From the IMG/VR virus record IMGVR_UViG_2740892282_000008: a stretch of 28,665 nucleotides of DNA, one strand, 5' to 3'. The notes under the pieces are model-generated. The model ran no database searches. It worked only from the letters and a program-made list of their open reading frames with translations, and was not told where the DNA came from. The DNA comes from a virus (lineage: Duplodnaviria > Heunggongvirae > Uroviricota > Caudoviricetes). The first letter of the stretch is position 1. Each line of letters starts with the position of its first letter. This document shows, in pieces, positions 1 to 27,429 of this stretch. Made by a program: the position numbers and the translations under genes.

Positions 1-393
1 ATGTTAGATATTGACAGTTTCAAAAGCATCAATGACAAATGGGGGCATCATATGGGTGATCAAGTCATAGTAATGGTTACCAGAATAATAAAAAAATCCA
101 TCAGGAAAGAGGATATATTAGGGCGCTTAGGCGGTGAGGAGTTCGGTATTATCATTAAAGGTAATACTCAAAAGCTCTTGCTATCAATTGCAGAGCGAAT
201 CAGAAAAAACATTGAAGAGCAATGCTCGGAAAAATTATTATCGCATGGACCTGAGAAAATAACTGTCAGTATTGGTTGCTTTACTTCAAAAGAGAATAAC
301 CTCAGTCCATCTGAAATGTTAGTCAATGCCGATAAAGCGTTATATCAAGCCAAAAGAACCGGAAAAAACAAGGTGATAATTCACTCAAAATAA
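1..393 (+). CDS. GGDEF-domain diguanylate cyclase, C-terminal portion (5' end lies outside the window)
   Basis: Frame-1 ORF open from the window edge; GGEEF active-site motif (RLGGEEFGIII) with typical downstream cyclase sequence; stop at 391-393. Confidence 0.8.
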   Translation: MLDIDSFKSINDKWGHHMGDQVIVMVTRIIKKSIRKEDILGRLGGEEFGIIIKGNTQKLLLSIAERIRKNIEEQCSEKLLSHGPEKITVSIGCFTSKENNLSPSEMLVNADKALYQAKRTGKNKVIIHSK

Positions 394-420
394 ACACCTT
401 TTTAAAATACAGCCCCAATA

Positions 421-457
421 AACTGCAGAATATTATCCCATATAATATCCTGCAGTT
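421..457. other. 37-bp near-perfect inverted repeat (16-bp arms, 5-nt spacer) between convergent GGDEF and tfa genes; possible bidirectional terminator or prophage/deletion junction
   Basis: aactgcagaatattat-cccat-ataatatcctgcagtt; the arms are reverse complements with one mismatch. No clean T-run on either side. Confidence 0.4.
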
Positions 458-466
458 CGTAATGCA

Positions 467-1051
467 CTATTCGATAATGGGTACTGTTGGCCATTCAATA
501 TCCGGTGCAGTTGTTGTATTAACACGGTTCAGCAACACCCGATACTTCTTCCAGGCTTCCAGCAACGAGGTTTCTTCCTCCGTTGCAATTTCCAGATCTG
601 CAGCATCCTGAAGCGGCGCAATATGCTCACTGGCTACCTGCATCAGGCTGTTTTTTGTTTCTTCCGCCTCCCGGATCCGGAACAGTTTTTCTGCTTCTGC
701 ATCTTTCACCCAGGCTGTGCCGTTCCACTTCTGATATTCCCCTCCCGGCGACAACCAGGTAACATTTTCCGGTAACGGACCGAGTTCAGAAATAAATAAC
801 GCGTCGCCGGAAGCCACGTCATAAACCGTTTTACACCGATGGTCTTCAACGAGATGCCACGATGCCTCATCACTGTTGAAAACAGCCACAAAGCCAGCAG
901 GAATATCTGGTGGTGCAATATCGGTACTGTTTGCTGGCAGACCTGTATGAGGCGGAATATATGCGTCACCTTCACCAATAAATTCATTAGTTCCGACCAG
1001 CAGATTATAAATTTTTATGGTCCGTGGTTGTTCACTCATTCTGAATGCCAT
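467..1051 (-). CDS. tfa: Tail fibre assembly protein (Tfa family)
   Basis: 194-aa ORF with ATG start; N-terminus [18 protein letters not shown] and overall sequence match my recollection of E. coli prophage TfaR/TfaE proteins; stop overlaps the upstream ORF by 1 nt. Confidence 0.85.
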
Positions 1052-1362
1052 TATGCAAGCCTCACAATATAGTTAAATGCGATGTTTTTGACGGTGTTTT
1101 CCGCATTATCAGCAGCGTTAACGGTGATGGTGTGTCCATGTGAACCAATCGCAACGGAGTGCGTATGAGCACCAATAGCTGCTTTTAATTTTGCGAGCGC
1201 GTTCTTCTCATCTTCTGTTGCCTTAGTCACTTTCCCTGCGCTATTTGCAGCAGTTTCCCCAGCCTGCGTCATTTTGACTAATGAGGAGGTCAGATTGTCA
1301 GCATTATTTTTCGCTCCAGTGCTATCAATAATTATTGCGAGACGCGAGGTTTGCTCTGCCAT
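1051..1362 (-). CDS. Side tail fibre C-terminal domain protein (103 aa), probable remnant of a longer stf gene
   Basis: C-terminal His-rich motif [18 protein letters not shown]...[11 protein letters not shown] typical of lambdoid side tail fibre C-termini; has its own ATG and an AGGAG RBS, but no virion-attachment N-terminal domain; a terminator lies immediately upstream. Confidence 0.6.
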
Positions 1363-1385
1363 TTATTAAAACTCCTGACAACAAA

Positions 1386-1407
1386 AAACCCACCGCGAAG
1401 TGGGTTT
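1386..1407 (-). terminator. Rho-independent terminator (minus strand)
   Basis: 8-bp stem aaacccac/gtgggttt with 6-nt loop; on the minus strand it is followed by a T-run (ttttttgttg). Confidence 0.6.
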
Positions 1408-1527
1408 CAGGCGACATAATAGTAGATATAGCGATTACGAGGCCACGCAATGCTTTTCTCCAGGAGCATCATCGATTTAATTAAAGACACCATCACATCT
1501 CTGTAACAGAGTGTACGTAATTAACAA

Positions 1528-1761
1528 CTACACACACTGCTCCTGAAAATACTGGTCATTCAGTGCAAAGATCACTGCTTCAAATTCATCGCGCTCAATC
1601 AATACCGGATGAGTGGCTAAATATTCATTTATCTCTGTCAGAGATAAAGGCAAAGGCAGCCCAGCCATTCCAGCATAACGTCGGGCACGGGATATTACCG
1701 AATAGGCGTACAACAACTCCTTAAGCACCGGGTCTATTTCTGGTTCCGGTATCGGTGGCAA
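1528..1761 (-). CDS. Hypothetical protein (77 aa)
   Basis: ORF with TTG start only and weak RBS; no recognisable motif. Confidence 0.3.
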   Translation of the reverse strand: MPPIPEPEIDPVLKELLYAYSVISRARRYAGMAGLPLPLSLTEINEYLATHPVLIERDEFEAVIFALNDQYFQEQCV

Positions 1762-1835
1762 CCTGAGTTTTTCTCGCTTCCATCTTGCCTTTTCCCCCCT
1801 TTCTCCCCCGAACTCCGATAACCACCGCTGGGCAG

Positions 1836-2297
1836 CTATGGCTTTTTTATCGTATCCTGCTTCTGCTGCTCTTTACCCTGGGCGATGCTGGCTGCTTCTG
1901 CAAGGATCTGCCAGTACAACTCTGGATTCTGCTTAAGCAGCGCGATCCCTCGTTCTGCCGTATATTCCAGTGCAACCTCAACACCATTAACCAGTTCACC
2001 AACCCCTTTCCAGTCTTTCAGCAGATAACGAGCGGCATTATCAATGAGTAAATCATCAACAGAATCCACCTCGGAAACCTTTGAAATATCAAACTCCTTC
2101 GTTCCGACGTGCAAACTGGCATCCATTTTCTCAATGTGGCGACGGATTAATGCATTACGGGAGCGATACTGATCGTTATCGCTGCTTGCCACCAACAGTT
2201 TTAACCCGTCTACAGGTTTTAAGTCCTTCATTGGCGTAAACCAGCGTTCTCCACCAATGATAATTTTCTGATTAAGAATAAACATCCATAACCTCAT
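1836..2297 (-). CDS. Hypothetical phage protein (153 aa)
   Basis: ATG start with G-rich RBS; co-oriented with neighbouring phage ORFs; function not recognisable. Confidence 0.45.
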   Translation of the reverse strand: MRLWMFILNQKIIIGGERWFTPMKDLKPVDGLKLLVASSDNDQYRSRNALIRRHIEKMDASLHVGTKEFDISKVSEVDSVDDLLIDNAARYLLKDWKGVGELVNGVEVALEYTAERGIALLKQNPELYWQILAEAASIAQGKEQQKQDTIKKP

Positions 2298-2345
2298 TCA
2301 ATGCGTCCCCCTGTAGGGCAGTACCACAGGAGGAATAACGGAAAA

Positions 2346-2789
2346 TCAACTAATCGCCTCAGCACTGGCTTTTGCGATCACGGCAGCCGGGGAATTTTTT
2401 TTTCTGGTTAGTCGGTACGCCTCTGTCGGCTTTTTACCCTGAGCAACAAGCATCGCAAACTTAGCCTGCTGGTCAGAAATGCCGAATTCATCGGGACAGA
2501 ACGAAAATTCCTCCGCGTCGCCCTCATTCAGGCCCGCATCGAATACTGGCTTTTTTTCCTGAGATTTTTCGTTCCGCTTTTGTGCAGTCTGCGCAGATTT
2601 TTTCTGCGCACTTTTTTGTGCAGTTTTGCACATTTCTGTCTGCGCATTTTTCGGAGTTTTTTTGATGTAACGACGGGCTGTTGCGTAATTCAGTCCCCTT
2701 GCTTCACACCATGCCACCGGAGATATACCGGAGCGGGTGTATTCAGCAATATACTCCTGCTGCAACGCCCCCCAGTCCGGTCTGCTCAT
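2346..2789 (-). CDS. Hypothetical HTH-containing protein (147 aa), possibly terminase small subunit-like
   Basis: N-terminal helix-turn-helix-like segment (ISPVAWCEARGLNYATARRYI); central low-complexity AQK repeat encoded by repeated TGCGCA/TGTGCAG DNA motifs; sits where terS is expected downstream of the lysis genes. Confidence 0.45.
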   Translation of the reverse strand: MSRPDWGALQQEYIAEYTRSGISPVAWCEARGLNYATARRYIKKTPKNAQTEMCKTAQKSAQKKSAQTAQKRNEKSQEKKPVFDAGLNEGDAEEFSFCPDEFGISDQQAKFAMLVAQGKKPTEAYRLTRKKNSPAAVIAKASAEAIS

Positions 2790-2792
2790 CAG

Positions 2793-3044
2793 TTAGTCCT
2801 GATTTTTATCCACCCTGAGTAGTTCGCGCAGAGCAAAGGCATCCCCTTTTCTGGCAAGCTTAAACAATGCCGCTCGTAACTCGGCTTCACCTTTCGCTCT
2901 GCCCTTACGGATGGCCGCATAAAAATCTGTCATTGCTTCCCGATTTTCTTTCAGTCGGTTCAGATCAACATCCAGAACGTCAGCGATTTGTTGTGCAGTC
3001 ATCCGGCACGCTGCCAGAGACTCGACTTTCGAATACGGAATCAT
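2793..3044 (-). CDS. Hypothetical small HTH-like protein (83 aa)
   Basis: ATG with strong RBS (GGGGGTGA); overlaps the 3' end of the upstream gene in another frame. Confidence 0.5.
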   Translation of the reverse strand: MIPYSKVESLAACRMTAQQIADVLDVDLNRLKENREAMTDFYAAIRKGRAKGEAELRAALFKLARKGDAFALRELLRVDKNQD

Positions 3045-3933
3045 TTGTCACCCCCATTGATATGCAGGGTGTCTTCTTCCTGTATTTTTCGTGAAGGATT
3101 TTTACTGCAGCGTTGTTCCAGGTGACCTGATGGTGAATGCGTTTATGGCTGGCACCCATCAGTGAGATTTTTACGCACGACGGCGCATACATGACGGAGT
3201 AAAAACTTTTAACGTAGGTTCCGGAATCCAGATACAGCTCGGTCATTCCGCCGCTGTTTTTCTGCGTCTGTTTCTGCCCTAACTGGACAGCACCGATCGT
3301 CATAAACAATTCACCACAGCGACCGAGATTCGTGTACGTATTCACATCCTCGTTAATGCGCCCCATGAATGAGAACGGTCGATCAACCGAACAGATAAAG
3401 CTGTTCATTGCCTTGCGTTTCACCCACGAAGCATGGCCGCCATTGTCACCAAGAAAATCCCCGCCCTGCGACATAGCGATGGAAAGAGCAGGTATTGATT
3501 CGTAGTACGCCAGCATTTCAGAAAGGATCGCATCCAGTTTCCTTATCGGAAAATAGGCCTGGTCATAGTTGCGATCCACCCGAAACTGGAACTCGTGATA
3601 ATCATCATCGAGCTGAATGAAGTATTTACACCCGACCAGTTTTGCCAGGTCGAAACAGGCATTACGGGCGTAAAAAATTGAGCGGCGGTCACAGAAATTA
3701 TCGGCTTCGTCAAAACGACTGGCGATATCGGCTTTGGAAAACACCAGCACCTGTTCACCAAATTCAGCCATGTACTGATTCCGTGTCTTATCTTCATCAT
3801 CAACAACGATAAAAATTTTCCCGGTATAGCCAGCACGACGCAACGTCCGGTAAGTCAGAACTTTGTCCGGTCGCCCGTGAGTCAGAATAAAGGCGCAAAA
3901 ATCATCACGCATATTCCTCCTCCTCACCACCAT
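2980..3933 (-). CDS. Uncharacterised protein, partner of the ParB-like gene (310-317 aa)
   Basis: Long ORF translationally coupled to the upstream ParB-like gene. The likely true start is the ATG at 3912, preceded by AGGAGGAGG. Contains a possible PD...(D/E)xK-like motif (GRPD ... IFIVVDDEDK); no methyltransferase DPPY/NPPY motif and no PP-loop. Confidence 0.7.
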   Translation of the reverse strand: MVVRRRNMRDDFCAFILTHGRPDKVLTYRTLRRAGYTGKIFIVVDDEDKTRNQYMAEFGEQVLVFSKADIASRFDEADNFCDRRSIFYARNACFDLAKLVGCKYFIQLDDDYHEFQFRVDRNYDQAYFPIRKLDAILSEMLAYYESIPALSIAMSQGGDFLGDNGGHASWVKRKAMNSFICSVDRPFSFMGRINEDVNTYTNLGRCGELFMTIGAVQLGQKQTQKNSGGMTELYLDSGTYVKSFYSVMYAPSCVKISLMGASHKRIHHQVTWNNAAVKILHEKYRKKTPCISMGVTNDSVFESRVSGSVPDDCTTNR

Positions 3934-4696
3934 GCATGATCTCCACCATGCGCTGCGTCATCCGGACAAATCCATTTTCAATAGCCTGCTGATAATCAAT
4001 GATCACCAGCGCCGACTCCTCGAAAAAACACTGAATTTCAGAGGGGGCGTGAGCGTAATAGTCCGCAATTCTGCTGAAATTAAACACCGTGTGACGTTCT
4101 GCCGCACACAGGAGGAATTTCTCAATATCAGGCTCAAGGGACGCCGAACGTATCCGGCTGATCAGCTCCTGAGTTTTCGTATCGTCGTACAGTTCACTGA
4201 TATCCGGTTTACCGCCCGACGGCTCATAAACAGGCGTATCAATTTTCGTCGTATACGGCTCCTCCTCATTTCCTGTACCGGGCAAAACATCCGTCAACAG
4301 TTCATCAATTTCTGTCGGGATGAAGCCTGTCAGGGAGACATCAAAATCAGCATTGATTAGGTCCGACAGCTCCATCCGCAACAGATCTTCATCCCAGCCA
4401 GCATTCATCGGCAGGCGATTATCTGCCAGGCGGTACGCCTTTTTCTGCTCATCCGTCAGGCCAGACAGAACAATGACCGGAACAGAATCCATTTTGAGCA
4501 TTTCAGCCGCCATAACACGACCGTGACCCGCAATAATTTCGCCCTTTTCGTCAATCAGCACCGGATTAGTCCAGCCGAATTGCTTAATACTTTCTACCAG
4601 TTGTGCCACCTGCTCAGGGCTGTGCGTCCTGGCGTTGTGCGCATACGGTGACAATTCTTGTAATGGGCGATAGACTATCTTTAATTTCTCGCTCAT
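3905..4696 (-). CDS. ParB-like nuclease domain (ParB/Srx fold) protein, 263 aa
   Basis: N-terminal ParB-box-like motifs (VYRPLQELSPYAHNARTH ... IIAGHGRVMAA); 3' end overlaps the start of the next gene. Confidence 0.8.
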   Translation of the reverse strand: MSEKLKIVYRPLQELSPYAHNARTHSPEQVAQLVESIKQFGWTNPVLIDEKGEIIAGHGRVMAAEMLKMDSVPVIVLSGLTDEQKKAYRLADNRLPMNAGWDEDLLRMELSDLINADFDVSLTGFIPTEIDELLTDVLPGTGNEEEPYTTKIDTPVYEPSGGKPDISELYDDTKTQELISRIRSASLEPDIEKFLLCAAERHTVFNFSRIADYYAHAPSEIQCFFEESALVIIDYQQAIENGFVRMTQRMVEIMHGGEEEEYA

Positions 4697-4833
4697 ACAG
4701 CCTTGCTTTATGAATAAAACGCACCCCAGCAGCCAGTGCTACTGGGGACGGAGGGGTTGCTGGTAAAGTTAGGTATTGGATCAATGAGTGAGTCAACATA
4801 ATATTAAACTCACAATTATAAATCAGCCATATA

Positions 4834-6291
4834 TTAGGAGCGCCAAAAAAAACCTGAAAACAATATAATAACAGGATAAATTTCAAGGCGACCAAGAATC
4901 ATAGCTATGCACATTAAACATTTTGCAATGTCATTAAGCACTCCGAATGACGATGCAGTAGCCCCAAAACCTAATCCCATATTATTAATACATGCAGCCA
5001 CTGTTGCAAATGATGTAAGAAAATCATATCCCATACCATTTAACACCAGTATAAAAAACACCGTGAAGAGAGTATAAAGAAAAAAGAAACTCCATACAGA
5101 CCTCATTACACGATCTGTAACTATCTTCCCTCCTACATTTACACTCAACAACGCTCTGGGATGAGAAAGCTGATTTATCTCGTGTTTGCTTTGTTTGAAA
5201 AGTATAAGAAATCGAAGTGACTTAATTCCACCACAAGTTGAACCTATACATCCCCCAAAGAAACTTGACAACAGCAAAAACACTATCGTGTGCGTGGGCC
5301 AACTTGCATAATCCTGCGTAGCTAAACCATTATCAGTGAGCATGGAGCTGGCAAGAAAAAACGAATGAATAAAACTTCCATGCAAGTCATACATACCTAT
5401 ATGCCAGACCTGGAAAGAGGTAACAATGATCACCCCTAAGGCTATTAACAGAAAGAAACGAAGTTCAATATCTCTGATTAAAGGTTTTATCGTTTTCCTG
5501 CTAATAACAATATACCAAAGAGTGAAGTTGAAAGCCGATAGCAGGGAAAAAGAACCAGCCACCAGCTCAACCAAATAGTTATTAAAATATCCGATACTCT
5601 CGCTATGAGTTGAGAAACCACCAAGCGAAACTGTGGAAATCCCGTGACAAATAGCATCAAACAAAGGCATTCCTGCAAGTCTATAACAGACAATACAAGC
5701 AATACCTAATAAAGAATAAGTTATCCACAGTGTCCGTGACGTATCGGCCAGGCGGGGAGTGAGTTTGTCATCCTTAAATGGCCCCGGCATTTCTGACTGA
5801 TAAAGCTTTGCACCACCAATACCCAATAATGGCAATACAGCAACCGCCAGAACAATAACTCCTAAACCACCTATAAAATTTAACTGTGACCGATAGTACA
5901 AATATGCCCGAGGTAATGAACTAACATCATCAATTACAGTTGCTCCTGTTGTTGTTATTCCAGAAACCCCTTCAAACAGAGCATCAATGAACGTTAAATT
6001 AAGTTCTGAGTCAATCCATAAAGGGAATGCACTAATAACAGAAAACAAAATCCAAAACATTACAATTATAATAAACCCATCACGGGTACGTAATTGAATG
6101 CCAGATTTCTTAGTTGTATACCACGCTCCGCCACCAATGCAAAAAAATATAACGAAAGTTATAAAGAAAACGAACAGGCTTTTTTCTTTATAAAACAATG
6201 CTACAACCATTGGTGGCAACATTGAAAGACTATAGAGCCAAACCAGGAACCCACACATATGAGTAACAACTCTTACATGAGATGTATTCAT
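4834..6291 (-). CDS. trkG: Trk-system potassium uptake protein TrkG (485 aa)
   Basis: Polytopic membrane protein whose sequence from MNTSHVRVVTHMCGFLVWLYSLS matches my recollection of Rac TrkG; conspicuously AT-rich relative to its neighbours. Confidence 0.9.
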   Translation of the reverse strand: MNTSHVRVVTHMCGFLVWLYSLSMLPPMVVALFYKEKSLFVFFITFVIFFCIGGGAWYTTKKSGIQLRTRDGFIIIVMFWILFSVISAFPLWIDSELNLTFIDALFEGVSGITTTGATVIDDVSSLPRAYLYYRSQLNFIGGLGVIVLAVAVLPLLGIGGAKLYQSEMPGPFKDDKLTPRLADTSRTLWITYSLLGIACIVCYRLAGMPLFDAICHGISTVSLGGFSTHSESIGYFNNYLVELVAGSFSLLSAFNFTLWYIVISRKTIKPLIRDIELRFFLLIALGVIIVTSFQVWHIGMYDLHGSFIHSFFLASSMLTDNGLATQDYASWPTHTIVFLLLSSFFGGCIGSTCGGIKSLRFLILFKQSKHEINQLSHPRALLSVNVGGKIVTDRVMRSVWSFFFLYTLFTVFFILVLNGMGYDFLTSFATVAACINNMGLGFGATASSFGVLNDIAKCLMCIAMILGRLEIYPVIILFSGFFWRS

Positions 6292-6428
6292 ATCTAAATA
6301 TTCTTTCAATTATAACCACCTTGCTGCAATATTATGATTATACTGTATAAAATTTAACTCCTCTTAGATCTTACTTCACTGTTCCTTATGAAACAATCAT
6401 CAAAATGAATCATATTGTAGTTAAGATT

Positions 6429-6893
6429 TTACTTTAAACACTGCTCGGTTATGTATTGCTGAGCACCTTCAAGTTGGGCCTGCATCATTACCAGTCGTTC
6501 CCGGAGGGTGAAATAATCCCGTTCAGCGGTGTCTGCCAGTCGGGGGGAGGCTGCATTATCCACGCCGGAGGCGGTGGTGGCTTCACGCACTGACTGACAG
6601 ACTGCTTTGATGTGCAACCGACGACGACCAGCGGCAACATCATCACGCAGAACATCATTTTCAGCTTTCGCATCAGCTAACTCCTTCGTGTATTTTGCAT
6701 CGAGCGCAGCAACATCACGCTGACGCATCTGCATGTCAGTAATTGCCGCGTTCGCCAGCTTCAGTTCTCTGGCATTTTTGTCGCGCTGTTCTTTGTAGGC
6801 GATGGCGTTATCACGGTAATGATTAACACCCCATGACAGGCAGACGACGATGCAGATAACCAGAGCGGAGATAATCGCGGTTACTCTGTTCAT
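6429..6893 (-). CDS. Rz: Spanin inner-membrane subunit Rz (i-spanin)
   Basis: N-terminal transmembrane segment plus coiled-coil periplasmic domain; ATG overlaps the R stop (ATGA); contains the embedded Rz1 frame. Confidence 0.85.
6488..6673 (-). CDS. Rz1: Spanin outer-membrane lipoprotein Rz1 (o-spanin), embedded in the +1 frame of Rz
   Basis: 61-aa ORF with lipoprotein signal and lipobox (LPLVVVGC), proline-rich mature part ([15 protein letters not shown]), strong AAGGAG RBS, entirely inside Rz. Confidence 0.8.
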
Positions 6894-7387
6894 TGCTGAC
6901 CCCACAAACAGATTTCACGCTCAATCTCACGACGAGTCATGAGACCTTTCCATTGCTTACCGCCAGCATATGTCCAGCGACGTAGCTGATCACATGCGCC
7001 TTTGATATCGCCCTGGTTTATTTTGCGAAGAAGCGTCGATGTTCTGAAATTGCCAGCACCCACGTTGTAAACGAATGAGTAAAGAGCGCCGCGCGTTGTT
7101 TCCGGTATATCGACTTTGATGTACGGGTTAATTTGTCTGGCGACCGTGGCAAGGTCTTTATTCAGGAGGGCTTTGCATTCTGCTTTGGTATACGTTTTAC
7201 CGAGCATGATGTCTTTTCCTGTATGCCCGTGACATACAGTCCATACACCAACAATATCTTTGTATGGTATGTAGCTGACACCTTCCAGACCATCGTTACC
7301 ACTTGGGCCAGTGATTAACACTGATGCTATAGCAATTGCTCCGCCACCAATAGCAGCAGCAACGACTTTTCGTAATGATGGAGGCAT
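6890..7387 (-). CDS. R: SAR endolysin (phage-21-type lysozyme R)
   Basis: 165 aa; N-terminal signal-anchor-release segment ([20 protein letters not shown]) followed by a lysozyme domain; close match to my recollection of phage 21 R; strong RBS. Confidence 0.9.
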
Positions 7388-7602
7388 TATTCACCTCTCG
7401 CAGCCTTGCGCTTATCTTCTTTAATCTTGAAATAAAGGTTTGTCAGGTACGTCAGCAGGCCAAATACCAGACTACCCAGCACACCGATTGCAGCCCACTG
7501 TGACGGAGTTACTCTATCGAGCAACTGTAAAAACCAGTAGCCAGCACTGCCTGCGGAGGTGCCGTAGGCAATGCCTGTTGAAATTTTGTCCATGGATTTC
7601 AT
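7387..7602 (-). CDS. S: Class II holin / pinholin (S21-like) with dual-start motif
   Basis: 71 aa starting [26 protein letters not shown]; two transmembrane segments; dual start Met1/Met4 (holin/antiholin); strong GGAGGTGA RBS; stop overlaps the R start. Confidence 0.85.
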
Positions 7603-7710
7603 AGCCTCACCTCCGTACGGAACGGATGGCATAGTTATTATGTGTAGGCTTTCAGACACATCAATCAGAGCCTTAATTGATATATATGCTGGAGACGATG
7701 CAATATAAAA

Positions 7711-7728
7711 AGCTCGCCGTAGCGAGCT
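7711..7728 (-). terminator. Rho-independent terminator closing the lipoprotein moron (minus strand)
   Basis: Stem agctcgc/gcgagct with loop cgta; on the minus strand it is followed by ttttatatt. Confidence 0.55.
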
Positions 7729-7853
7729 AATAAAATGTATTTCTCTGATATTATGTTTATTTGTATTAGCTCAGACTTGACATCACAGGTTTCGTATATA
7801 GAACATCATCAAATCTGTCAGTTTGCTATGAATGAGATATAGTAATTGAAGAG

Positions 7854-8249
7854 CTAACCTCGCATGTCAAAGCCAGATTTCTGAAAATCTCTGTAGACTT
7901 CCGGATTGTTGAAGGCCGGAAATTTGGCTTTATGAGCTGCGGACTTTATCGCTTCGCAATAGGCTTTATCACCGTTACTGGTAGATATTTTTAACGCCGT
8001 GCCATCCTGAGAGAATTCCATATGCAACCTGCATTTTTTCCCTTTCCAGTTATGCGGCTCATCAAGTTTGGCATTAATTGCAGCTCTGATTCCCCGCGCT
8101 TGCGCCCCCCATTCATCCTGATCATCCCAGCGTCCTGAACTGCAACTACCTGTAGCAGTAGTTTTGTGGCAATCTGAAGGGTGTAAAGGTGTGCATCCCG
8201 CAACAAAACCGACCCAAAAAGTCAACATAACGATTTTCTTTAATCCCAC
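7854..8249 (-). CDS. Lipoprotein with TolA domain-III-like C-terminal domain (paralogue B, 131 aa)
   Basis: GTG start with GAGGAG RBS; signal peptide plus lipobox (FVAGC); C-terminal ~80 aa share the K-C-L-M...G-L...C-EA...PA...EVY-F pattern with the neighbouring paralogue and with the TolA C-terminus. Confidence 0.7.
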   Translation of the reverse strand: MGLKKIVMLTFWVGFVAGCTPLHPSDCHKTTATGSCSSGRWDDQDEWGAQARGIRAAINAKLDEPHNWKGKKCRLHMEFSQDGTALKISTSNGDKAYCEAIKSAAHKAKFPAFNNPEVYRDFQKSGFDMRG

Positions 8250-8399
8250 TTCTTGCTCCTCAATCCATTAAAATCTCAGCAATAGTAGTTGTTACGTCCG
8301 CCACTGGCTCAGAGCTGACTATCCGCTAAATTTAGCTCAGTGCCGTAGCTGTGTCAGAACAAACCTAAGCCGAAACCGTTTATTACAAAACAATAAATA

Positions 8400-8828
8400 T
8401 CAGGGTTTAAAATCCAGCACCCCATTTTGAAATACTTTATATACTTCCGGCGAAGGGGGGGCAGGTATATCAGCATTCTTTATCGCATTCATCGCTTCAC
8501 GACATAAATCGAGGTCTCCACTTTCTCTTTTAACCTCCAGTAGAAGGCCATTCGGGGCCATATGCATTCTCAGTGTACACTCTTTTCCTGAATACTTACT
8601 CGCATCCCCGAACTGTTTTTCGATGGCGCTCTTGATTTGATGGGCATACAGACGGATATCCTCACTAACATCAGAAGTACGTTCAGATGAACTCACATAC
8701 TGTGTCTCTATTGCTTTATTGGAGTAATATGATGTACGGTCATGATAATTTGTCGATACAGCATCAGTGCACCCGATAATAATCCCACTAATAATCAACG
8801 TAAGAATTGATGCGCTACGAAAACCCAT
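8400..8828 (-). CDS. Lipoprotein with TolA domain-III-like C-terminal domain (paralogue A, 142 aa)
   Basis: Signal peptide plus lipobox (IIIGC); C-terminus YAHQIKSAIEKQFGDASKYSGKECTLRMHMAPNGLLLEVKRESGDLDLCREAMNAIKNADIPAPPSPEVYKVFQNGVLDFKP is strongly similar, from memory, to the C-terminal domain of E. coli TolA. Confidence 0.8.
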   Translation of the reverse strand: MGFRSASILTLIISGIIIGCTDAVSTNYHDRTSYYSNKAIETQYVSSSERTSDVSEDIRLYAHQIKSAIEKQFGDASKYSGKECTLRMHMAPNGLLLEVKRESGDLDLCREAMNAIKNADIPAPPSPEVYKVFQNGVLDFKP

Positions 8829-9762
8829 TTTTCCTCACATATGTCATATAGTAAAGGATTATATATACCGTTGTTTTGGACGCTCAAACAGCGAATCAGA
8901 TCAAATAAAACGCACATTTGTTAACATTTACACAAAGTCTGCGTGGGATATTCTGAAAGAATATCCATAATGTGGAGAGAATCTATTGAAGTGCATGGTG
9001 CCGGGTGCCTCCCGGTGAACAAAATGTTCGTGATACCTGTCGGCGACAGAAAAGGTTAATGGTATCACCCCACCGCACAGGGGGATTCACCATGCAGGAG
9101 TTTTCTTAGCAAACTCACTGCGCGCCCGGCAACTCCCAACCACATAAAATGCGGAGTTTGTGGTATTTATGCATATAACTCGCAGGAATTATCTTAAAAA
9201 ACTGATGTCGATCCGGATTAAAAAGAAGCAGGTCATCATCAGATGACTGGAAAAAAGGAAAACAAAAAATACTCATCATACAGTTTTGATTGCAGGGATG
9301 AGCCTGCTATGCACAATATGCAGAATATAAGCAAGATAAAAATATGCAGGCATATTATTTCGGATTTTGTTATTAACACAACCTTTTTAATAATCATTTG
9401 GCATACAATAAACCAGCCCAAAAAGAACCGCCTAAACAGGCGGTTGGTCAATACAAAGGATGCTTCGTCTTTATTATAGTAATCTGAGGCGTCGGGTGTC
9501 TTGTATCAGACAACATATTGTCCCGCTAAACAGCGAATTACAAACCACCCTGCAATGATCTCTCATCTCATTTTATATGAGTTGACGACATCAGGATAAC
9601 GCATCATCAGCCCCTGCCAAGAAATATCAAAACTCCCGCCAGCAATGTGTTATCACAATATTGTAAAAAAAACACAGCACCGAAACTATAACTGGTCTCT
9701 GTTATAATTTGGAGCAGAAAGACCAGTTGCCCAACTAGCAGCATTCTCCCCTGCTTTCCTGA

Positions 9763-9795
9763 CGTAAAAAAACCGCATTAAGCGGTTTTTTTACG
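9763..9795. terminator. Strong bidirectional rho-independent terminator ~80 nt downstream of the Q-position gene (tR'-like or end of the early operon)
   Basis: Perfect 14-bp inverted repeat cgtaaaaaaaccgc / gcggtttttttacg with 5-nt loop; A/T runs on both sides. Confidence 0.75.
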
Positions 9796-9872
9796 ATGTC
9801 CATGTCTGCAATCCGCCTCGCGATACAGCTTTGCGAAGCATAGCAAAATTGAAGCAGTTTATACGTAAGAAA

Positions 9873-10415
9873 TCAAGCCATTTTCTCAGCAAATGATTCA
9901 CGCATGGGAATATATAGGGCATACTCAGCAACAGCTAACCAATTAGCAATCCGTTTTTCGCATGTGCTAAAACACCACTCTGGGTGTGCATCATTTAGCA
10001 ATTCAGCCATTTTGCGCTTAGTCATCCCCCGCCCTTCATAGCGTTGCCGGAGAATGCAAATCAATCCTGGATGCTCTGCCAGCACCTCACTTATGACTCG
10101 ATCAATACATAACGCCTCTGCATCAGTACAATGCGCCAGCCAGCTCTTTTGCTTGCCGTTGATCATCTCTCGCAAAAACGCTTCCAGCTCAGCTTTCTCT
10201 ATTCCCGCTTTTTTCATTCTGCGCAGGGCTTCATTAATGGCTGTTTTCGTCAGTTTTTTGGATGCCAACAACTGATTGAACATATTCCCTGACCTGCCAC
10301 CGCCAATATACGACCAGCGCCCCCACATACGTAGTTTTCCCTGAATCCAGACACTTTCCAGCGTGGTGAGGCGAAGGTGTTCTCCGCTTTTTCCTGTATT
10401 CGTTGGGTAAATCAT
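9873..10415 (-). CDS. Putative late-gene antiterminator (Q-like), assigned mainly by position
   Basis: 180-aa ORF, last gene of the early-right operon, translationally coupled (ATGA) to the upstream gene, immediately upstream of a strong terminator and the lysis cassette. Sequence identity to a named Q family not confirmed. Confidence 0.45.
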   Translation of the reverse strand: MIYPTNTGKSGEHLRLTTLESVWIQGKLRMWGRWSYIGGGRSGNMFNQLLASKKLTKTAINEALRRMKKAGIEKAELEAFLREMINGKQKSWLAHCTDAEALCIDRVISEVLAEHPGLICILRQRYEGRGMTKRKMAELLNDAHPEWCFSTCEKRIANWLAVAEYALYIPMRESFAEKMA

Positions 10416-10702
10416 AAATGACCTTTCTTTCTCCAGATTTCTTGTGTGCGAAAAACCCCTTCAGCATGCATCAGGCGCAATTCTTCTTTGGTGTAATCGC
10501 TGGTTTTTACCCGCCCGTCGATTAGATCGTGGCATGAGCTACAGGCTATCGCCGCCTGCATATCGTGTGGTTTTGTCGCTGTTCCGCACGTCCCCGCCAG
10601 CCTGTAATGCGCCAGCACAGAGGTTTCGGGATTGTGATTGCAGTAGCCAGGGATTCTGATCTGGCACATCTGGCCTTTAGCCGCTTTACGTAAATTCACC
10701 AT
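10412..10702 (-). CDS. Nin-region protein, Cys/His-rich (YbcO-like, 96 aa)
   Basis: 96-aa ORF with multiple Cys/His (CNHN ... CSSCHD), same size as YbcO-type nin proteins; start overlaps the upstream stop by 1 nt. Confidence 0.5.
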   Translation of the reverse strand: MVNLRKAAKGQMCQIRIPGYCNHNPETSVLAHYRLAGTCGTATKPHDMQAAIACSSCHDLIDGRVKTSDYTKEELRLMHAEGVFRTQEIWRKKGHL

Positions 10703-11301
10703 TACGCAAACTCCAGTAGTTGTGCGGCCACATTTTCAACTTCCTCCTGAGAGGAGAATTTACGGAACAGAATCCAGTTCCACAGCACATTCAGTACAGA
10801 TTTATAAACCTGCTGAAACTCGACTTCGTCCATATTCGCAAAAGCGATGGATTTTGCCCGACGCCCACGGCTACCGTCCGGATAAATATGCTCGGTGTAA
10901 AATCCGGCCTGAATGGTTACCCACTCGCGGAAAGCCTCAAACGACTTTAGCAACGCCGTATCCCGGGTTCTACGAGTCGCAACGGTGTTAAGGTATTGCT
11001 CTACGGCATCACTCAGGGCTGGCGTGTGTTCCCGACCAACTGATTCGCACAGGTAATCAACGAAACCAGACAGCAGTTCTCGTTCGCGAGGCGTGATCGC
11101 CCCACCGACCGGAGTCCAGTAATCGAATCCCAGTTGCAGGAGTTTGAAAAAACGCTTGTGGAATGCGTAGTTACGCACACGCTTAAAGTCTGCGTGTATC
11201 CACTCACCTATTTTGATTTGATGCAGAAAATCGCAACTCTCCGGCGTCGCCGGGAGAAGTAAACCAGAAGAAGTTTGTTTGACCAGTTGTATATGCGCCA
11301 T
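10702..11301 (-). CDS. Nin-region phage protein of unknown function (199 aa)
   Basis: ATG start; first gene of a three-gene translationally coupled unit ending in the Q-position gene. Confidence 0.65.
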   Translation of the reverse strand: MAHIQLVKQTSSGLLLPATPESCDFLHQIKIGEWIHADFKRVRNYAFHKRFFKLLQLGFDYWTPVGGAITPRERELLSGFVDYLCESVGREHTPALSDAVEQYLNTVATRRTRDTALLKSFEAFREWVTIQAGFYTEHIYPDGSRGRRAKSIAFANMDEVEFQQVYKSVLNVLWNWILFRKFSSQEEVENVAAQLLEFA

Positions 11302-11574
11302 TTCTCAATCTCTCGATGGCGCAGTGCAGCAGATGCCAGTTGTTCAGGCTGACGTATAAAGTATAAATAAACTGGTTCCAGTGTAAAGCCCCCACCTTAA
11401 TGGAATAAAAACCAAACAACAGATTGCTGGGATACAAACAACGCTTATTATTAAAAGCGGTTAAACAAATTAAATTTTAATGTTATGCAAATTTGTCAGA
11501 TCACCATAATATCTCATTTGAAAACCGCTGAAATAACAATCCTATCAGGATTAATCATATTAAGGTGAGTAAAT

Positions 11575-11661
11575 ATGGAAAACAACAAATCTGCACATTA
11601 CGCTCCTTTTTTATCTGTAATACTTTTTGTTTTTTGCTGTGTATGGGCATTATTTTTATAA
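11575..11661 (+). CDS. Candidate small hydrophobic peptide (28 aa, MENNKSAHYAPFLSVILFVFCCVWALFL)
   Basis: ATG preceded by AAGGTGAG at good spacing; polar N-terminus then a single transmembrane-like segment; convergent with hok. No homologue recognised. Confidence 0.3.
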   Translation: MENNKSAHYAPFLSVILFVFCCVWALFL

Positions 11662-12645: not shown

Positions 12646-13845
12646 ATGCCATTTGTTATTTATGTGTTTACTATCAGTGCCTTTGCGCTCGGACTCGCGG
12701 AATTTGTCCCCATTGGGCTGACAGACGTTATGGCTCAGGGGTTGTGTGTGGGTGTGGAGCAGACCGGGGCAGCGGTTACAACCTATGCACTGGGGGCAAC
12801 GTTCGCGGCACCCGTACTGTCTGCGCTGACAGCAAGCTGGAGCCGGAAAAATGTAATGCTTACAACTGCCGTTGTGTTTACTGCCGGTAGTCTGGCGGCC
12901 GCGTTTGCAGCCACATTACCTCAGCTCCTGTTAGCGCGGTTCATTGCTGGTCTGGGACACGGCCTGTTTCTGGCTGCGGCATCCAGTACCGCAGCTCGTC
13001 TTGCTGGACCGGGTAAAGCAGGCAGAGCGGTGGCTGTGGTATTTGGTGGCTTTACTCTGGCGATGGCAATCGGCGTACCGCTGAGTACATGGTTGGGGGG
13101 GGGGGTCTCATGGCGTCCAGTTCTCGGCGCTATTGCCGCTTTTGGCGCGTTCGGATTCCTTGGACTGTTGTTCGGTATGAAAGATCCCGTACGCAGCGTG
13201 CCCGGTGAACATAGTGACTCAGCAATGCAGAATATCGGCATGCTGTTTAACCGTAAGTTGCTGGCCGGCGCGCTGGTTACGGTGCTGGCGTATGCAGGCT
13301 CGTTTACGGATTACACCTTTATCGCACCTATTCTGACGCAGGTGACAGGGGTTACCGGAGCAACGGTGAGTCTGTTTATGCTGGTTTACGGTATTACAGC
13401 TGCGGTAGGTAATATTCTTGGTGGGAAACTTACCGACAGCATGGGGGTTAATCGTGCCAATATACTCATCATTAGCGGCATTGTTGTTGTCGTGCTTGGT
13501 ATGTGGCTGCTGTCATCCTCACCGGTGAGCATGGGCATTCTGGTTGCGCTGCTGGGTATGGTGACATTTGCCGCAGTGCCGGCACTGCAGGCCCGTCTGA
13601 TTGGTGTCGCTGAGCAACATGCTCCTCATGCGCATGGTGTTGCTGCCGGCCTGAATATTGCGGGCTTCAACTCAGGTATAGCGCTGGGATCAGTACTGGG
13701 CAGCATTACTATAAGCCACGCCGGTATCGTGTATACCGGTATCAGCGGTGCGATTGTTTCTCTGCTCGGCCTGCTGTTGCTGCTTGCACAAATCCGTCGC
13801 AGCCACAGTCGTAAATTTCAACAGGTTAAAATCGTAGGCCAGTAA
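12646..13845 (+). CDS. MFS transporter (399 aa)
   Basis: About 12 predicted transmembrane helices, Gly/Ala-rich major-facilitator-like sequence; AGGAG RBS; GC-rich relative to phage DNA; contains an 11-G tract. Confidence 0.85.
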   Translation: MPFVIYVFTISAFALGLAEFVPIGLTDVMAQGLCVGVEQTGAAVTTYALGATFAAPVLSALTASWSRKNVMLTTAVVFTAGSLAAAFAATLPQLLLARFIAGLGHGLFLAAASSTAARLAGPGKAGRAVAVVFGGFTLAMAIGVPLSTWLGGGVSWRPVLGAIAAFGAFGFLGLLFGMKDPVRSVPGEHSDSAMQNIGMLFNRKLLAGALVTVLAYAGSFTDYTFIAPILTQVTGVTGATVSLFMLVYGITAAVGNILGGKLTDSMGVNRANILIISGIVVVVLGMWLLSSSPVSMGILVALLGMVTFAAVPALQARLIGVAEQHAPHAHGVAAGLNIAGFNSGIALGSVLGSITISHAGIVYTGISGAIVSLLGLLLLLAQIRRSHSRKFQQVKIVGQ

Positions 13846-13856
13846 AGGGAGGTTAT

Positions 13857-14549
13857 ATGCTTACCCGTGAAAATATGCTTAATGGCACATTTGTCAGGGT
13901 GCATGAAGCGCTGCTCCCGGCGAATATGCTCTGGGACGCTGAAAAAATACGCGCATCAATGAACTCTACTCTGGAGGAGCGCCCGACGGGTGCTCCTGTC
14001 TGGATATTTGCCTACGGGTCATTGATGTGGAATCCCGTGCTGGCGATTGAAGAAATGCAACGGGCCCGTCTGAAAGGATGGCAGCGCAGTTTCTGCATTC
14101 GTTTGATATCCGGACGAGCGACTCCTGATGTCCCCGGCAGGATGTTATCGCTCGACGAAGGTGGAATTACCGAAGGTATTGCGTTCAGACTGCCGGAATC
14201 GACTCTTATTAATGAGCTGGAAATTGTCTGGACGCGCGAGATGATAACCGGTCTTTACCGTCCGGTCTGGGCAGACGTTTCGCTAGGAAACGGTGAGGAA
14301 ATTCAGGCGCTGGCTTTCGTATCAGACAGACTGCATCCGCATTATGAACAGGACAATCTTACAGCGACCGTAGCGTTGAGCATCGCATCTGCCCGTGGAG
14401 ACATTGGCACGAATGCAGATTATGTATGGAAACTGCAGGCCACTCTGGGTGCGTTGGGAATACGGGATGATTACGTGAGTGAACTGGCCCTTGCTCTGCA
14501 TGAGGCTCCCTGTAACGATAAACTTCATCAGCGAGGCGCTTCACTATGA
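13857..14549 (+). CDS. ChaC-family gamma-glutamylcyclotransferase-like protein (230 aa)
   Basis: VWIFAYGSLMWNP and GRMLSLDEGG motifs resemble E. coli ChaC; GGGAGG RBS. Confidence 0.75.
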   Translation: MLTRENMLNGTFVRVHEALLPANMLWDAEKIRASMNSTLEERPTGAPVWIFAYGSLMWNPVLAIEEMQRARLKGWQRSFCIRLISGRATPDVPGRMLSLDEGGITEGIAFRLPESTLINELEIVWTREMITGLYRPVWADVSLGNGEEIQALAFVSDRLHPHYEQDNLTATVALSIASARGDIGTNADYVWKLQATLGALGIRDDYVSELALALHEAPCNDKLHQRGASL

Positions 14550-15427
14550 GCCATCTGAGCCATCTGCGAACGTTTCTTGAGGCCTATCGCTCTGGCTCCT
14601 TTTCAAAGGCGGCAGAACTACTGGGCATCACTCAGCCCGCGGCGTCACAGCATATCCAGTCTCTTGAGACTCTGGTTGGTAAGCGTCTGTTTATCAGGCA
14701 GGCCAGAGGCGTGACGGCAACCGAAGCTGCGGATGAGCTTGCCCGCTCAGTTTCACCCTTCATTGATGGTCTGGAAGAAAAGCTGTCCTCTTTCCGGTCA
14801 GGCTCTGTACGCGGGGGAACAATTAATCTGGCAGGACCGCCAGATTTTATTCATTCCCGGCTTGGGACAGTAATGGCTCCACTAATGAAGGAGGGGTATC
14901 GCCTACGCTTTCATACCGGCAATAAGCAACGTATTTATTCCCTTTTGCATGACGGGAGCGCCGATCTCGCTGTTACCGCATCTATGCCTGATGACCGTCT
15001 GTACGGCTATGCACATCTACTGACTGAACGCATGCTCCTTGTTCATGCTCCCGCCATGTCAGAGATCATCGGATCAGAACCTGGTGCTGAAACGCTTGCC
15101 TCATTACCGCTGATTGCTTATGACGAAGAGTTGCCACTGATTAGAGCGCTCTGGGCCTCCATGTTTCAGAGAGCCCCTGAGATGCAGGCTACATTCACCA
15201 TTCCGGATTTACGTATTATCCGCGACTTGGTCTGTGACGGCCACGGGTGGACAGTGCTGCCGGATTATCACTGTGACAATGACCTGAAAAGTGGTCGCCT
15301 GATTTCAGTGACACCTGCAGACCTCGCTCCGACTAATCATCTTTATCTGGTCTGGAACAAAAGGACGGCTAATAACAGCCGAACCGCCTATGTTCGGGAT
15401 TACATTCTTAAAACGTTTCCGCGTTGA
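14546..15427 (+). CDS. LysR-type transcriptional regulator (293 aa)
   Basis: N-terminal LysR HTH (LRTFLEAYRSGSFSKAAELLGITQPAASQHIQSLE) and C-terminal substrate-binding-like domain; ATGA overlap with the ChaC-like gene. Confidence 0.85.
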   Translation: MSHLSHLRTFLEAYRSGSFSKAAELLGITQPAASQHIQSLETLVGKRLFIRQARGVTATEAADELARSVSPFIDGLEEKLSSFRSGSVRGGTINLAGPPDFIHSRLGTVMAPLMKEGYRLRFHTGNKQRIYSLLHDGSADLAVTASMPDDRLYGYAHLLTERMLLVHAPAMSEIIGSEPGAETLASLPLIAYDEELPLIRALWASMFQRAPEMQATFTIPDLRIIRDLVCDGHGWTVLPDYHCDNDLKSGRLISVTPADLAPTNHLYLVWNKRTANNSRTAYVRDYILKTFPR

Positions 15428-15471
15428 TGTTTGAAACGGATGATTGGCGATGCGTATCATAAGTTACGTAT

Positions 15472-15495
15472 GTCCGCTTCTGGCACAAAGCAGAC
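15472..15495. repeat. Dyad element copy A: GTCCGCT-tctggcacaa-AGCAGAC
   Basis: 7-bp arms (one mismatch) with 10-bp spacer, between convergent LysR and membrane-protein genes; 20 of 24 positions identical to copy B. Confidence 0.6.
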
Positions 15496-15557
15496 GCCCA
15501 CTCTCACGCGAATGCTTTGCCCTTGACTTGCCAACAACCGTATCGCTTGCTCCGCAA

Positions 15558-16835: not shown

Positions 16836-16870
16836 TCTGCATTCCCTCATATTGCAGCCGGGATAAATAA

Positions 16871-16891
16871 ATGCCGCCTCTGTGGCGGCAT
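16871..16891 (-). terminator. Hairpin between the BCCT transporter and the membrane-protein gene; possible intrinsic terminator or attenuator
   Basis: 8-bp stem atgccgcc/ggcggcat with loop tctgt; on the minus strand it is followed by ttatttatcc. Confidence 0.4.
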
Positions 16892-16898
16892 GTTGCTG

Positions 16899-21561: not shown

Positions 21562-21637
21562 TACCCATAGGTAAACAAAAGTCAATACCCACAGGTTGTT
21601 TACCTTGCAGTAATCGCATCTATTATTTACCTATGGA
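21562..21637. promoter_or_regulatory. Immunity operator/promoter region (OR-like) with three related dyad sites
   Basis: tacccataggta (21562-21573), tacccacaggtt (21586-21597) and tacctatgga (21628-21637, overlapping the racR ATG), in the 100-bp gap between divergent racR and cro-like genes. Confidence 0.6.
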
Positions 21638-22052
21638 CAAATATGAATTTAGACGACAGCAACTCATCAAAATTCGTGATGAGAAATGCGATGGTAAAGC
21701 GGTTAACGTGGCCAGAAAGATCGGGCGCGAGCCTTCTTATGTATCAAGAATGTTGTACCCAGAGGGGAAAAAGGGAAAAAAACGGATCGCTGATGATATG
21801 GTGGAGATTATCGAAGAGTCCTTTGGGTTACCCCGGGGATGGATGGATGGTATCGTTTCATCATCAACGAACACAGCCTCCAGTTATGAAACAAGGGTTC
21901 TAACGCCACGACAACGTATTTTTTTAGATCTCTTAGACGAACTGCCAGAAAGTGAAGCGGATAACTTATTAAAAACTCTTGAAGAGAAAAAACAGTATTA
22001 CAATATGATCTACGAAGAAATCCGTAAAAAGAAAGCACAAAACGCATCATAG
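21633..22052 (+). CDS. racR: Prophage repressor (RacR-like)
   Basis: 139-aa ORF with N-terminal HTH (NVARKIGREPSYVSRML), divergent from the cro-like gene and flanked on both sides by operator-like palindromes. The symbol is assigned by position and my recollection of Rac. Confidence 0.65.
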   Translation: MDKYEFRRQQLIKIRDEKCDGKAVNVARKIGREPSYVSRMLYPEGKKGKKRIADDMVEIIEESFGLPRGWMDGIVSSSTNTASSYETRVLTPRQRIFLDLLDELPESEADNLLKTLEEKKQYYNMIYEEIRKKKAQNAS

Positions 22053-22094: not shown

Positions 22095-22132
22095 TACCCA
22101 TGGGTATTTACTTTTTAAATACCTATGGGTAT
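22095..22132. promoter_or_regulatory. Second operator cluster (OL-like) downstream of racR
   Basis: Perfect 12-bp palindrome tacccatgggta (22095-22106) and near-copy tacctatgggta (22121-22132), same family as the sites at 21562-21637. Confidence 0.55.
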
Positions 22133-26681: not shown

Positions 26682-26737
26682 TTCAGCCTGGCGGTGTAAT
26701 GCACCGCCAACTTGAAATATTTTTTATGAGAAAAATT

Positions 26738-27134: not shown

Positions 27135-27212
27135 AACTTCATAGCTGATTATTAATAATCAACATCGGGCGTCAATTTCAGTCTAACATTGGCGCCTGCC
27201 AGAGGTGATGCG

Positions 27213-27428: not shown

Positions 27429-27429
27429 T

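Follow-up and report, generated by a model that had tools for sequence, protein, structure and literature searches.

A decayed Rac-type lambdoid prophage at ttcA that has very probably lost its virion genes through internal deletions and retains dgcX as cargo

The stretch of DNA analysed here (the window; 28,665 nt) is very probably a decayed Rac-type lambdoid prophage located at ttcA, which has lost its virion genes through internal deletions while retaining the cargo gene dgcX. Open reading frames were listed for the window and protein families were assigned with Pfam and PHROG profiles. No complete terL, portal, capsid, tube, tape-measure or tail-tip gene was found within the 28.7-kb window, and the structural remains are confined to codons 1-126 of terS, the last 20 amino acids of the tube protein, codons 1-63 of the tape-measure gene and the last 40 codons of stfR. 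A particle-forming temperate phage was taken to carry complete terminase, portal, capsid, tube, tape-measure, tail-tip and fibre genes, a set that the window does not hold. With no head or tail genes and with recET broken, the element is predicted to be unable to build virions. The window thus adds a new deletion derivative to a type of element that is already well known. The features of the window are given below.

1-393, plus strand: 3' end of dgcX, residues 314-443 of 443 aa (Pfam GGDEF, E 3.7e-36)
421-457: palindrome in the spacer of the convergent genes dgcX and tfaR (arms of 16 nt, loop of 5 nt, 1 mismatch)
467-1051, minus strand: tfaR, an intact tail-fibre assembly gene of 194 aa (Pfam Caudo_TAP, E 2e-42; phrog_105)
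1051-1362, minus strand: 103-aa chimeric ORF, tape measure/StfR (translation comparison; PHROG N- and C-terminal matches)
1173-1177: junction of deletion 1, with the 5-bp microhomology CAATA
1372-1376, minus strand: AGGAG, 9 nt upstream of the ATG of the 103-aa ORF (1360-1362)
1385-1408, minus strand: hairpin resembling an intrinsic terminator, with a T-run, ahead of the tape-measure start (terminator scan)
1528-1761, minus strand: 77-aa ORF downstream of ydaY (phrog_1189; weak Phage_TAC_18 match, below the curated cut-off)
1836-2297, minus strand: ydaY, tail assembly chaperone (phrog_313, E 4e-46; annotated as ydaY in relatives)
2346-2789, minus strand: 147-aa chimeric ORF, terS/tail tube (translation; phrog_51, terminase small subunit)
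2410: junction of deletion 2, with a 1-bp overlap
26313-26317: junction of deletion 3, with a 5-bp overlap, in recE/recT and out of frame
27430-28665, plus strand: intR integrase at the ttcA-proximal prophage end (block 99.8% identical to the annotated intR stretch, L005)

The first 25 kb of the window was compared as a query with 5,426 complete E. coli genomes. At least 80% of the query was present in 201 of these genomes, where the matching region was about twice as long as the query itself. The best match was found in E. coli PapRG-06-3 (NZ_CP048604.1, about 777.6-834.8 kb), which carries an annotated intact Rac-type prophage of ~57 kb at ttcA. This prophage begins with a dgcX-like diguanylate cyclase gene followed by tfaR, stfR, lom, J, I, K, L, M, the tape-measure gene and ydaY, and continues with the genes for the tail tube, tail terminator, head-tail proteins, capsid, scaffold-like protein, minor head protein and portal, then terL and terS. 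Two small genes, ynaK, trkG, the lysis genes, the Q-region genes and hokD come after terS, and these are followed by a five-gene transporter/regulator block, the replication and immunity genes, sieB, kilR and recE. The terS, terL, portal, capsid, tube, tape-measure, tail-tip, lom, stfR, recE and recT genes are all retained in full in PapRG-06-3. Collinear blocks of this prophage cover the entire window with identities of 98.5-99.9%. Three of the blocks are listed here with their positions in the PapRG-06-3 locus (L003), and the last one, window 26313-28665, corresponds after a further gap to the recT-xisR-intR stretch of PapRG-06-3 (L005) with 99.8% identity.

Window 1-1177: L003 1401-2577, 98.5% identity
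Window 1173-2410: L003 15400-16635, 99.6% identity
Window 2410-26317: L003 25940-49845, 99.4% identity
Deletion 1, junction 1173-1177: ~12.8 kb, from codon 64 of the tape-measure gene into stfR, of which the last 40 codons remain
Deletion 2, junction 2410: ~9.3 kb, from codon 127 of terS into the tail tube gene, of which the last 20 codons remain
Deletion 3, junction 26313-26317: ~1.1 kb, comprising the C-terminus of recE and the N-terminus of recT

These sizes are relative to a single intact reference that is 98.5-99.6% identical to the window, with the ancestral state inferred from PapRG-06-3. Deletion 2 takes out the rest of terS together with terL and the portal, minor head, scaffold-like, capsid, connector, tail terminator and tube genes. 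Junctions with little or no microhomology bear the signature of illegitimate recombination, and deletions 1 and 2 most likely arose in this manner, one via a 5-bp microhomology and the other by an essentially blunt joining. The sequence-only reading of this DNA had described a defective prophage whose late region jumps from a few small ORFs to a tail-fibre remnant. The defect and the loss of the structural module are borne out, as every missing gene is listed in the intact PapRG-06-3 prophage. The single jump has to be given up, because two separate deletions are present with ydaY and the 77-aa ORF, probably the second part of a tail-assembly-chaperone pair, stranded between them. The alignment with an intact Rac-type prophage that the reading had proposed places the end points at 1173-1177 and 2410. 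The window also does not simply stop short of its structural genes. To the left, as seen in assemblies that carry the same deletions, lie the rest of dgcX, sitABCD, the att repeat, uspF and ompN, and on the other side ttcA is found beyond the integrase in PapRG-06-3, with no structural genes at either place.

Deletions 1 and 2 are both in frame, and each has left a chimeric ORF at its junction. Translation of the 103-aa ORF shows residues 1-63 of the tape-measure protein fused to the last 40 residues of StfR, and the 147-aa ORF likewise joins residues 1-126 of TerS with the C-terminal 20 residues of the tail tube protein. Neither ORF gave a match in Pfam, and both were resolved with PHROG. The N-terminal half of the 103-aa ORF resembles the starts of tape-measure profiles and its C-terminal half the extreme C-termini of tail-fibre families, and for the 147-aa ORF the match is to the beginning of terminase small subunit families. 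The earlier description of the 103-aa ORF as the C-terminal part of a tail fibre is therefore correct for its last 40 residues and mistaken for residues 1-63, which are the tape-measure N-terminus. It had also been credited with a ribosome-binding site and ATG of its own and a preceding terminator. These signals exist; they are the native signals of the tape-measure gene and are unchanged in the intact phage, the block that contains the terminator, the AGGAG and the ATG being 99.6% identical to that of PapRG-06-3. The hairpin at 1385-1408 on the minus strand has a 10-pair stem with 4 GC pairs, the stem ending in TTTT followed by the T-rich tail TTGTTGTC, and folds with -16.1 kcal/mol. It thus has the G+C-rich stem-loop and immediate U-tract of a Rho-independent terminator. 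The stop codon of the 103-aa ORF overlaps the ATG of tfaR (1051), and the TfaR product, reported in the earlier reading as tfa and confirmed here, has 190 of its 194 residues identical to TfaR of PapRG-06-3.

Queries spanning junctions 1 and 2 found no contiguous match in the 5,426 complete E. coli genomes, and the exact 38-nt pattern of junction 1 had no match among one genome per species; the lineage with the deletions is not a species representative. An exact-protein look-up found the 103-aa chimera on at least 16 public contigs, which come from independent NCBI isolate assemblies and ENA gut metagenomes. They match the window with 99.5-100% identity along as much as 11.4 kb and have both junctions wherever they extend that far, and both chimeras co-occur with dgcX, sitABCD, uspF and ompN in the carrier contigs. 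One of them, CXYJ01000012.1 of GCA_001268685.1, is 100% identical to window positions 1-11362 and ends at window position 1. GCA_030712435.1 is another of the carrier assemblies, and in one carrier contig (L012) the chimera is located at the Qin site. The deletion lineage is thus documented by draft and metagenome contigs only.

Two other readings of the junctions were weighed. One holds that the deletions are assembly artefacts in which repeated prophage sequence was collapsed, the real prophage of the strain being intact. The origin of the window in a draft contig that ends inside dgcX and the absence of the junctions from complete genomes would agree with this. Such a collapse is nevertheless extremely improbable, as identical junctions with both chimeric ORFs recur on the independent contigs described above, and microhomologies of 5 bp and 1 bp are far too short for it. 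We regard the deletions as real and inherited on the strength of these contig comparisons. The second reading accepts the deletions and proposes that their remnants are under selection, with the tape-measure/tail-fibre chimera and intact TfaR, and perhaps the terS/tube chimera, being domesticated, expressed and beneficial to the host. It is consistent with the intactness of tfaR, with the native ribosome-binding site and the stop/start overlap kept by the 103-aa chimera, and with the identity of this chimera across its carriers, one of them a contig whose tfa allele differs. Recent common descent explains the carrier identity equally well. In addition, the last 40 residues of a fibre 1,132 aa long would probably not fold into a receptor-binding tip, a terminator stands before the 103-aa ORF, and late transcription in lambdoid prophages is normally silent in lysogens. 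The in-frame state of two of the three deletions was considered as a sign of selection and was set aside. By our own calculation at least two in-frame events in three are expected with a chance of ~26%, and since deletion 3 is out of frame, the in-frame fusions are compatible with chance. Taken with these points, selection on the remnants is very unlikely, and simple decay through inherited deletions is preferred.

The ORF at 1-393 encodes the C-terminal three-quarters of a GGDEF domain and looks truncated solely because position 1 of the window is the end of the draft contig. The full-length gene was found in three deletion-carrying contigs (L006, L007 and L010), where it encodes 443 aa with a MASE4 domain (PF17158) and a GGDEF domain (PF00990), and the C-terminal part encoded in L006 is the same as residues 314-443 in the window. 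A GGEEF A-site is located at residues 357-361 and an RKED I-site at residues 348-351. The E359A/E360A mutants described for DgcX (PMC10459773) agree with this numbering, and the RKED geometry matches the DgcX I-site, an RxxD five residues upstream of the A-site (PMC4287979). On the basis of published description, motif numbering and context, the gene is assigned as dgcX, a predicted MASE4-GGDEF diguanylate cyclase.

Horizontally transferred dgcX is always adjacent to lambdoid prophage DNA, in most cases at the lambda attB site, and in strain SE11 it adjoins the prophage of the Rac region to the left of uspF-ompN; K-12 has no dgcX at these sites, and the authors of that study propose that dgcX hitch-hikes on prophages (PMC4287979). 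A further site, argW-dsdC, is known from strain Fec101 (PMC10459773). We observed dgcX in three contexts, namely at ttcA (L003), at lambda attB beside ybhB (L001 and L015) and at argW (L014). Beyond dgcX, the sister contigs with the deletions carry sitDCBA, a short spacer, uspF, ompN and ydbK, and the order in PapRG-06-3 is the same. The other end of the PapRG-06-3 prophage consists of intR followed by ttcA. In PapRG-06-3 the 5' end of ttcA is repeated directly between uspF and sitA over 43 bp, with 93% identity and a 26-bp identical core, and this core was also found between uspF and sitA in L006, L007 and L010. The att direct repeat that the sequence-only reading had suggested looking for is thus present at the start of ttcA and between uspF and sitA, the integrase-side copy (attL) lying beyond the window and being seen in PapRG-06-3 only. 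Since the repeat lies beyond sitABCD, dgcX and sitABCD are inside the att-bounded prophage and appear to be prophage cargo, not host chromosome. The att-bounded element measures ~57 kb when intact and ~34 kb in the deletion lineage. The earlier reading was right that a GGDEF gene ends at 1-393 and wrong to call the gene chromosomal. A literature search for sitABCD with 'Rac prophage' returned no papers.

The stop codons of dgcX and tfaR are separated by a spacer of 73 nt that contains the palindrome, whose arms at 421-436 and 442-457 are complementary at 15 of 16 positions. Two palindromes of such quality occur in the 28.7-kb window, compared with none in 30 block-shuffled windows. The 3' end of dgcX, the spacer, the palindrome and the 3' end of tfa are contiguous in 767 of the 5,426 complete genomes, and they are equally contiguous in the intact PapRG-06-3 prophage, with 98.5% identity over window 1-1177. 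The palindrome sequence is essentially invariant at ttcA, attB-lambda and argW with one substitution in a single locus (L725), and it is kept even at loci that retain just 32-59 tfa codons. The 37-bp near-perfect palindrome pointed out in the earlier reading therefore exists as described; its presence in an intact prophage and in the 767 genomes means that it does not mark a deletion or the end of the prophage. The tfa genes of phages and prophages without dgcX are homologous to the window from 479-489 onward, starting in the last tfa codons, and for this reason the palindrome belongs to the dgcX-side segment. On these comparisons it appears to be a native, widely conserved element of the dgcX/tfa spacer.

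As RNA, the palindrome folds with -16 kcal/mol on the plus (dgcX) strand, where an A-C mismatch is present, and with -26.6 kcal/mol on the minus (tfa) strand, where the mismatch becomes a G-U pair; the z-score is about -5.8 in both cases. The stem is AT-rich, and the RNA that follows it reads CGUAAUG on the plus strand and UUAUUGGGG on the minus strand. No U-tract follows the hairpin on the dgcX strand and only UUAUU on the tfa strand. The terminator scan gave no call at 421-457, where the G+C-rich stem-loop with an immediate U-tract is lacking, and Rfam placed no RNA family at the palindrome, its sole match being IS009 within the tfaR coding sequence. The palindrome copies examined are nearly identical and carry no covariation signal. 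The palindrome most likely forms a hairpin at the RNA 3' ends of the convergent transcripts, where it would act either as a 3'-end stabiliser or as a weak bidirectional stop. The role of shared terminator suggested in the earlier reading is possible in a weak form only, considering the stable hairpin, the AT-rich stem and the lack of a U-tract on the dgcX strand.

The position of the palindrome can be read in other ways. If the GGDEF gene were host chromosome, the prophage would end at or near the palindrome, which would then be a deletion scar or an att junction. The halt of homology to tfa without dgcX just right of the palindrome would fit this, as would the phage collection, in which no isolated phage with dgcX or junction 1 was found and matches were limited to tfa and the 3' end of stfR (479-1177). 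The same junction is, however, found in an intact prophage and in hundreds of complete genomes, the att repeat lies beyond sitABCD, dgcX stands beside tfa remnants at three unrelated chromosomal sites and is absent from these sites in K-12 (PMC4287979), and the true deletion junctions are elsewhere (1173-1177 and 2410), so that a chromosomal dgcX is highly improbable. A protein-binding or recombination site, used for example when the dgcX segment joined tfa, would account for a near-perfect DNA palindrome with two CTGCAG motifs located 22-32 bp from the start of homology to tfa without dgcX. No recombinase is associated with the palindrome, though, and in the RNA of one strand the only mismatch turns into a G-U pair. 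The palindrome also sits precisely between the stop codons of two convergent genes, a usual place for hairpins at transcript ends. A DNA site in place of an RNA hairpin is very unlikely given these points, and an RNA 3'-end element is the reading we favour. It is conceivable, although doubtful, that dgcX, the palindrome and the last ~7 tfa codons form a discrete cassette that is moved between unrelated lambdoid prophages by recombination inside tfa. Such a cassette would account for the identical 3' flanks at ttcA, lambda attB and argW. The palindrome would then be a functional 3' RNA element that stabilises the dgcX transcript or insulates it from the tfa transcript, and would have a part in the unusually strong dgcX expression that has been reported.

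The assignment to the Rac type is based on both ends and on the gene content of the element. The region of dgcX, tfaR and the 103-aa ORF belongs to the tail-fibre end of the prophage. The integrase end, the only one of the two prophage ends that the window includes, is of the intR type, and the stretch with xisR and intR adjoins ttcA in L005, ttcA itself being outside the window. The att direct repeat was found at both ends in PapRG-06-3 and on the uspF-sitA side in the three deletion-carrying contigs as well. The Rac gene set (recE/recT, kilR, sieB, ydaS/ydaT-type immunity, trkG, ydaY and stfR/tfaR) was identified by collinearity with a RefSeq-annotated relative, with recE/recT and stfR being truncated in the window, and the TrkH, Caudo_TAP and Q-like families were confirmed directly by profiles. 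Family matches or collinearity show that the element has retained int, xis, the immunity region, the Q-like antiterminator (by PHROG), the holin/endolysin/Rz genes (the lysis genes being assigned by collinearity with PapRG-06-3), kilR and sieB. Its cargo comprises dgcX, trkG and the transporter block, with tfaR intact and sitABCD just outside the window in sister assemblies.

These observations suggest the following course of events. The intact late operon would have run from terS through the tape measure to stfR-tfaR and ended opposite the convergent cargo gene dgcX, beyond which sitABCD and then the att repeat are found in intact relatives. Illegitimate recombination would have caused the ~12.8-kb loss from the tape measure to stfR and the ~9.3-kb loss from terS to the tail tube, so that tfaR survives intact beside the tail chaperone genes and two chimeric ORFs that are in frame, and a third deletion would have broken recE/recT. 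Expression of the 103-aa chimera and tfaR would need Q-dependent late transcription through the terminator at 1385-1408. The element may have been domesticated and kept for its cargo and perhaps for its immunity or exclusion functions, and induction could still yield excision and lysis without particles.

The closest well-known counterpart is the cryptic prophage Rac of K-12, with gene names in this comparison taken from the annotation of near-identical relatives (PapRG-06-3). Both share the ttcA site, the integrase, recE, kilR, sieB, ydaS/ydaT, trkG, ydaY and an stfR/tfaR-type fibre end, and both are defective through the loss of morphogenetic genes with a tape-measure remnant left in place. 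The deletion end points differ and K-12 keeps stfR; beyond tfaR, K-12 Rac has pinR-ynaE, where the window element has dgcX and sitABCD. The window element has in addition an MFS/GGCT/LysR/DUF2254/BCCT cargo block and the recE/recT deletion. The PapRG-06-3 prophage is collinear with it, including dgcX, the palindrome, tfaR and all of the cargo, and differs in holding the 12.8-kb, 9.3-kb and 1.1-kb segments missing from the window.

The published dgcX-prophage associations (Richter et al. 2014, PMC4287979; Cimdins-Ahne et al. 2023, PMC10459773) agree with our annotation in the MASE4-GGDEF architecture and in the GGEEF glutamates 359/360, and all three of their sites (lambda attB, Rac/uspF-ompN and argW-dsdC) were seen in the present analysis. 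The att repeat enclosing dgcX and sitABCD, the linkage of the palindrome with the tfa 3' end and the deletion derivative of the window are absent from these two papers. E. coli CUPF09 and 2018-05-5CC show a similar arrangement, in which dgcX-tfa is followed by an N-terminal tape-measure remnant joined to a C-terminal tail-fibre remnant. Unlike the window element at ttcA, they carry it at lambda attB, retain 639 bp of the tape measure and 1,065 bp of the tail fibre, have head genes present and have a frameshifted dgcX. They appear to be independently decayed relatives.

The element adds one more case of prophage domestication in which the virion genes are lost and the cargo, immunity and lysis functions are kept, and it matters mainly for correct annotation. 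The att repeat, which places dgcX and sitABCD inside Rac-type elements, fits a dgcX that would be prophage cargo and not a mere neighbour of prophages. The constant palindrome and tfa 3' flank of dgcX suggest how this gene moves between prophages.

At 26313-26317 lies the junction of a third deletion; some 1.1 kb is missing there, and with it the C-terminal (nuclease) part of RecE and the N-terminus of RecT. This deletion is out of frame and leaves a 656-aa recE open reading frame and an 81-aa recT fragment. Several further features were annotated in the prophage and are listed below.

Additional features annotated in the window
2980-3933 (-) and 3905-4696 (-): two adjoining genes immediately upstream of the terS remnant
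7854-8249 (-) and 8400-8828 (-): TolA C-terminal domains in two prophage ORFs, which lie between lysis cassette and Q region
12646-18902: metabolic cargo block of five genes, an insertion with hokD on one side and replication genes on the other
22095-22131: second palindrome, 16-nt arms and 5-nt loop, 15/16 paired

One of the two genes upstream of the terS remnant encodes a TET-associated-glycosyltransferase-like product (Pfam TAGT; PHROG 'beta-glucosyl-HMC-alpha-glucosyltransferase') and the other a full-length ParB_N/YnaK protein; the pair may serve in phage DNA modification. No TET/JBP gene was seen. Annotation of relatives names the products of the two ORFs at 7854-8249 and 8400-8828 TolA-domain proteins. 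The cargo block comprises an MFS transporter, a gamma-glutamylcyclotransferase, a LysR regulator, DUF2254 and a BCCT transporter, and it is also found in the intact Rac-type relative of E. coli PapRG-06-3. The palindrome at 22095-22131 is the only other one in the window equal in quality to that at 421-457 and sits immediately downstream of a racR-like ORF (21633-22052) in the immunity region, where it may act as a terminator or as an operator-like site.

Within the tail-fibre assembly gene tfaR, positions 510-708 (-) match RF02111 'IS009', an Rfam family for a putative sRNA gene, scoring 227 bits where the gathering score is 117. As the match falls wholly within coding sequence, the family may simply model copies of the tfa gene.

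The identical 103-aa chimera and its junction were also found in a metagenome contig (L012 1-904; ENA k141_157218), where they adjoin a different tfa allele and all 22 mismatches fall inside tfa. The contig has a Qin-type flank (pin, ynaE/ydfK-like, ydfJ, ydfI and ydfZ). Either recombination carried the junction from one prophage to the other (Rac, Qin), or the metagenome contig is itself chimeric.

Assembly breaks interrupt the diguanylate cyclase gene dgcX in two independent drafts that carry the chimera, at differing points (the contig edge at window position 1, and 10970-11582 of carrier contig L008), which suggests that the carrier strains may contain a second copy of dgcX or a repeat of another kind. 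A frameshifted dgcX also adjoins an independent tape-measure/tail-fibre deletion in E. coli CUPF09 (L001 7050-8806, at the lambda attB), the break points of which differ from those in the window. Decay of the tape-measure/tail-fibre segment has thus taken place at least twice.
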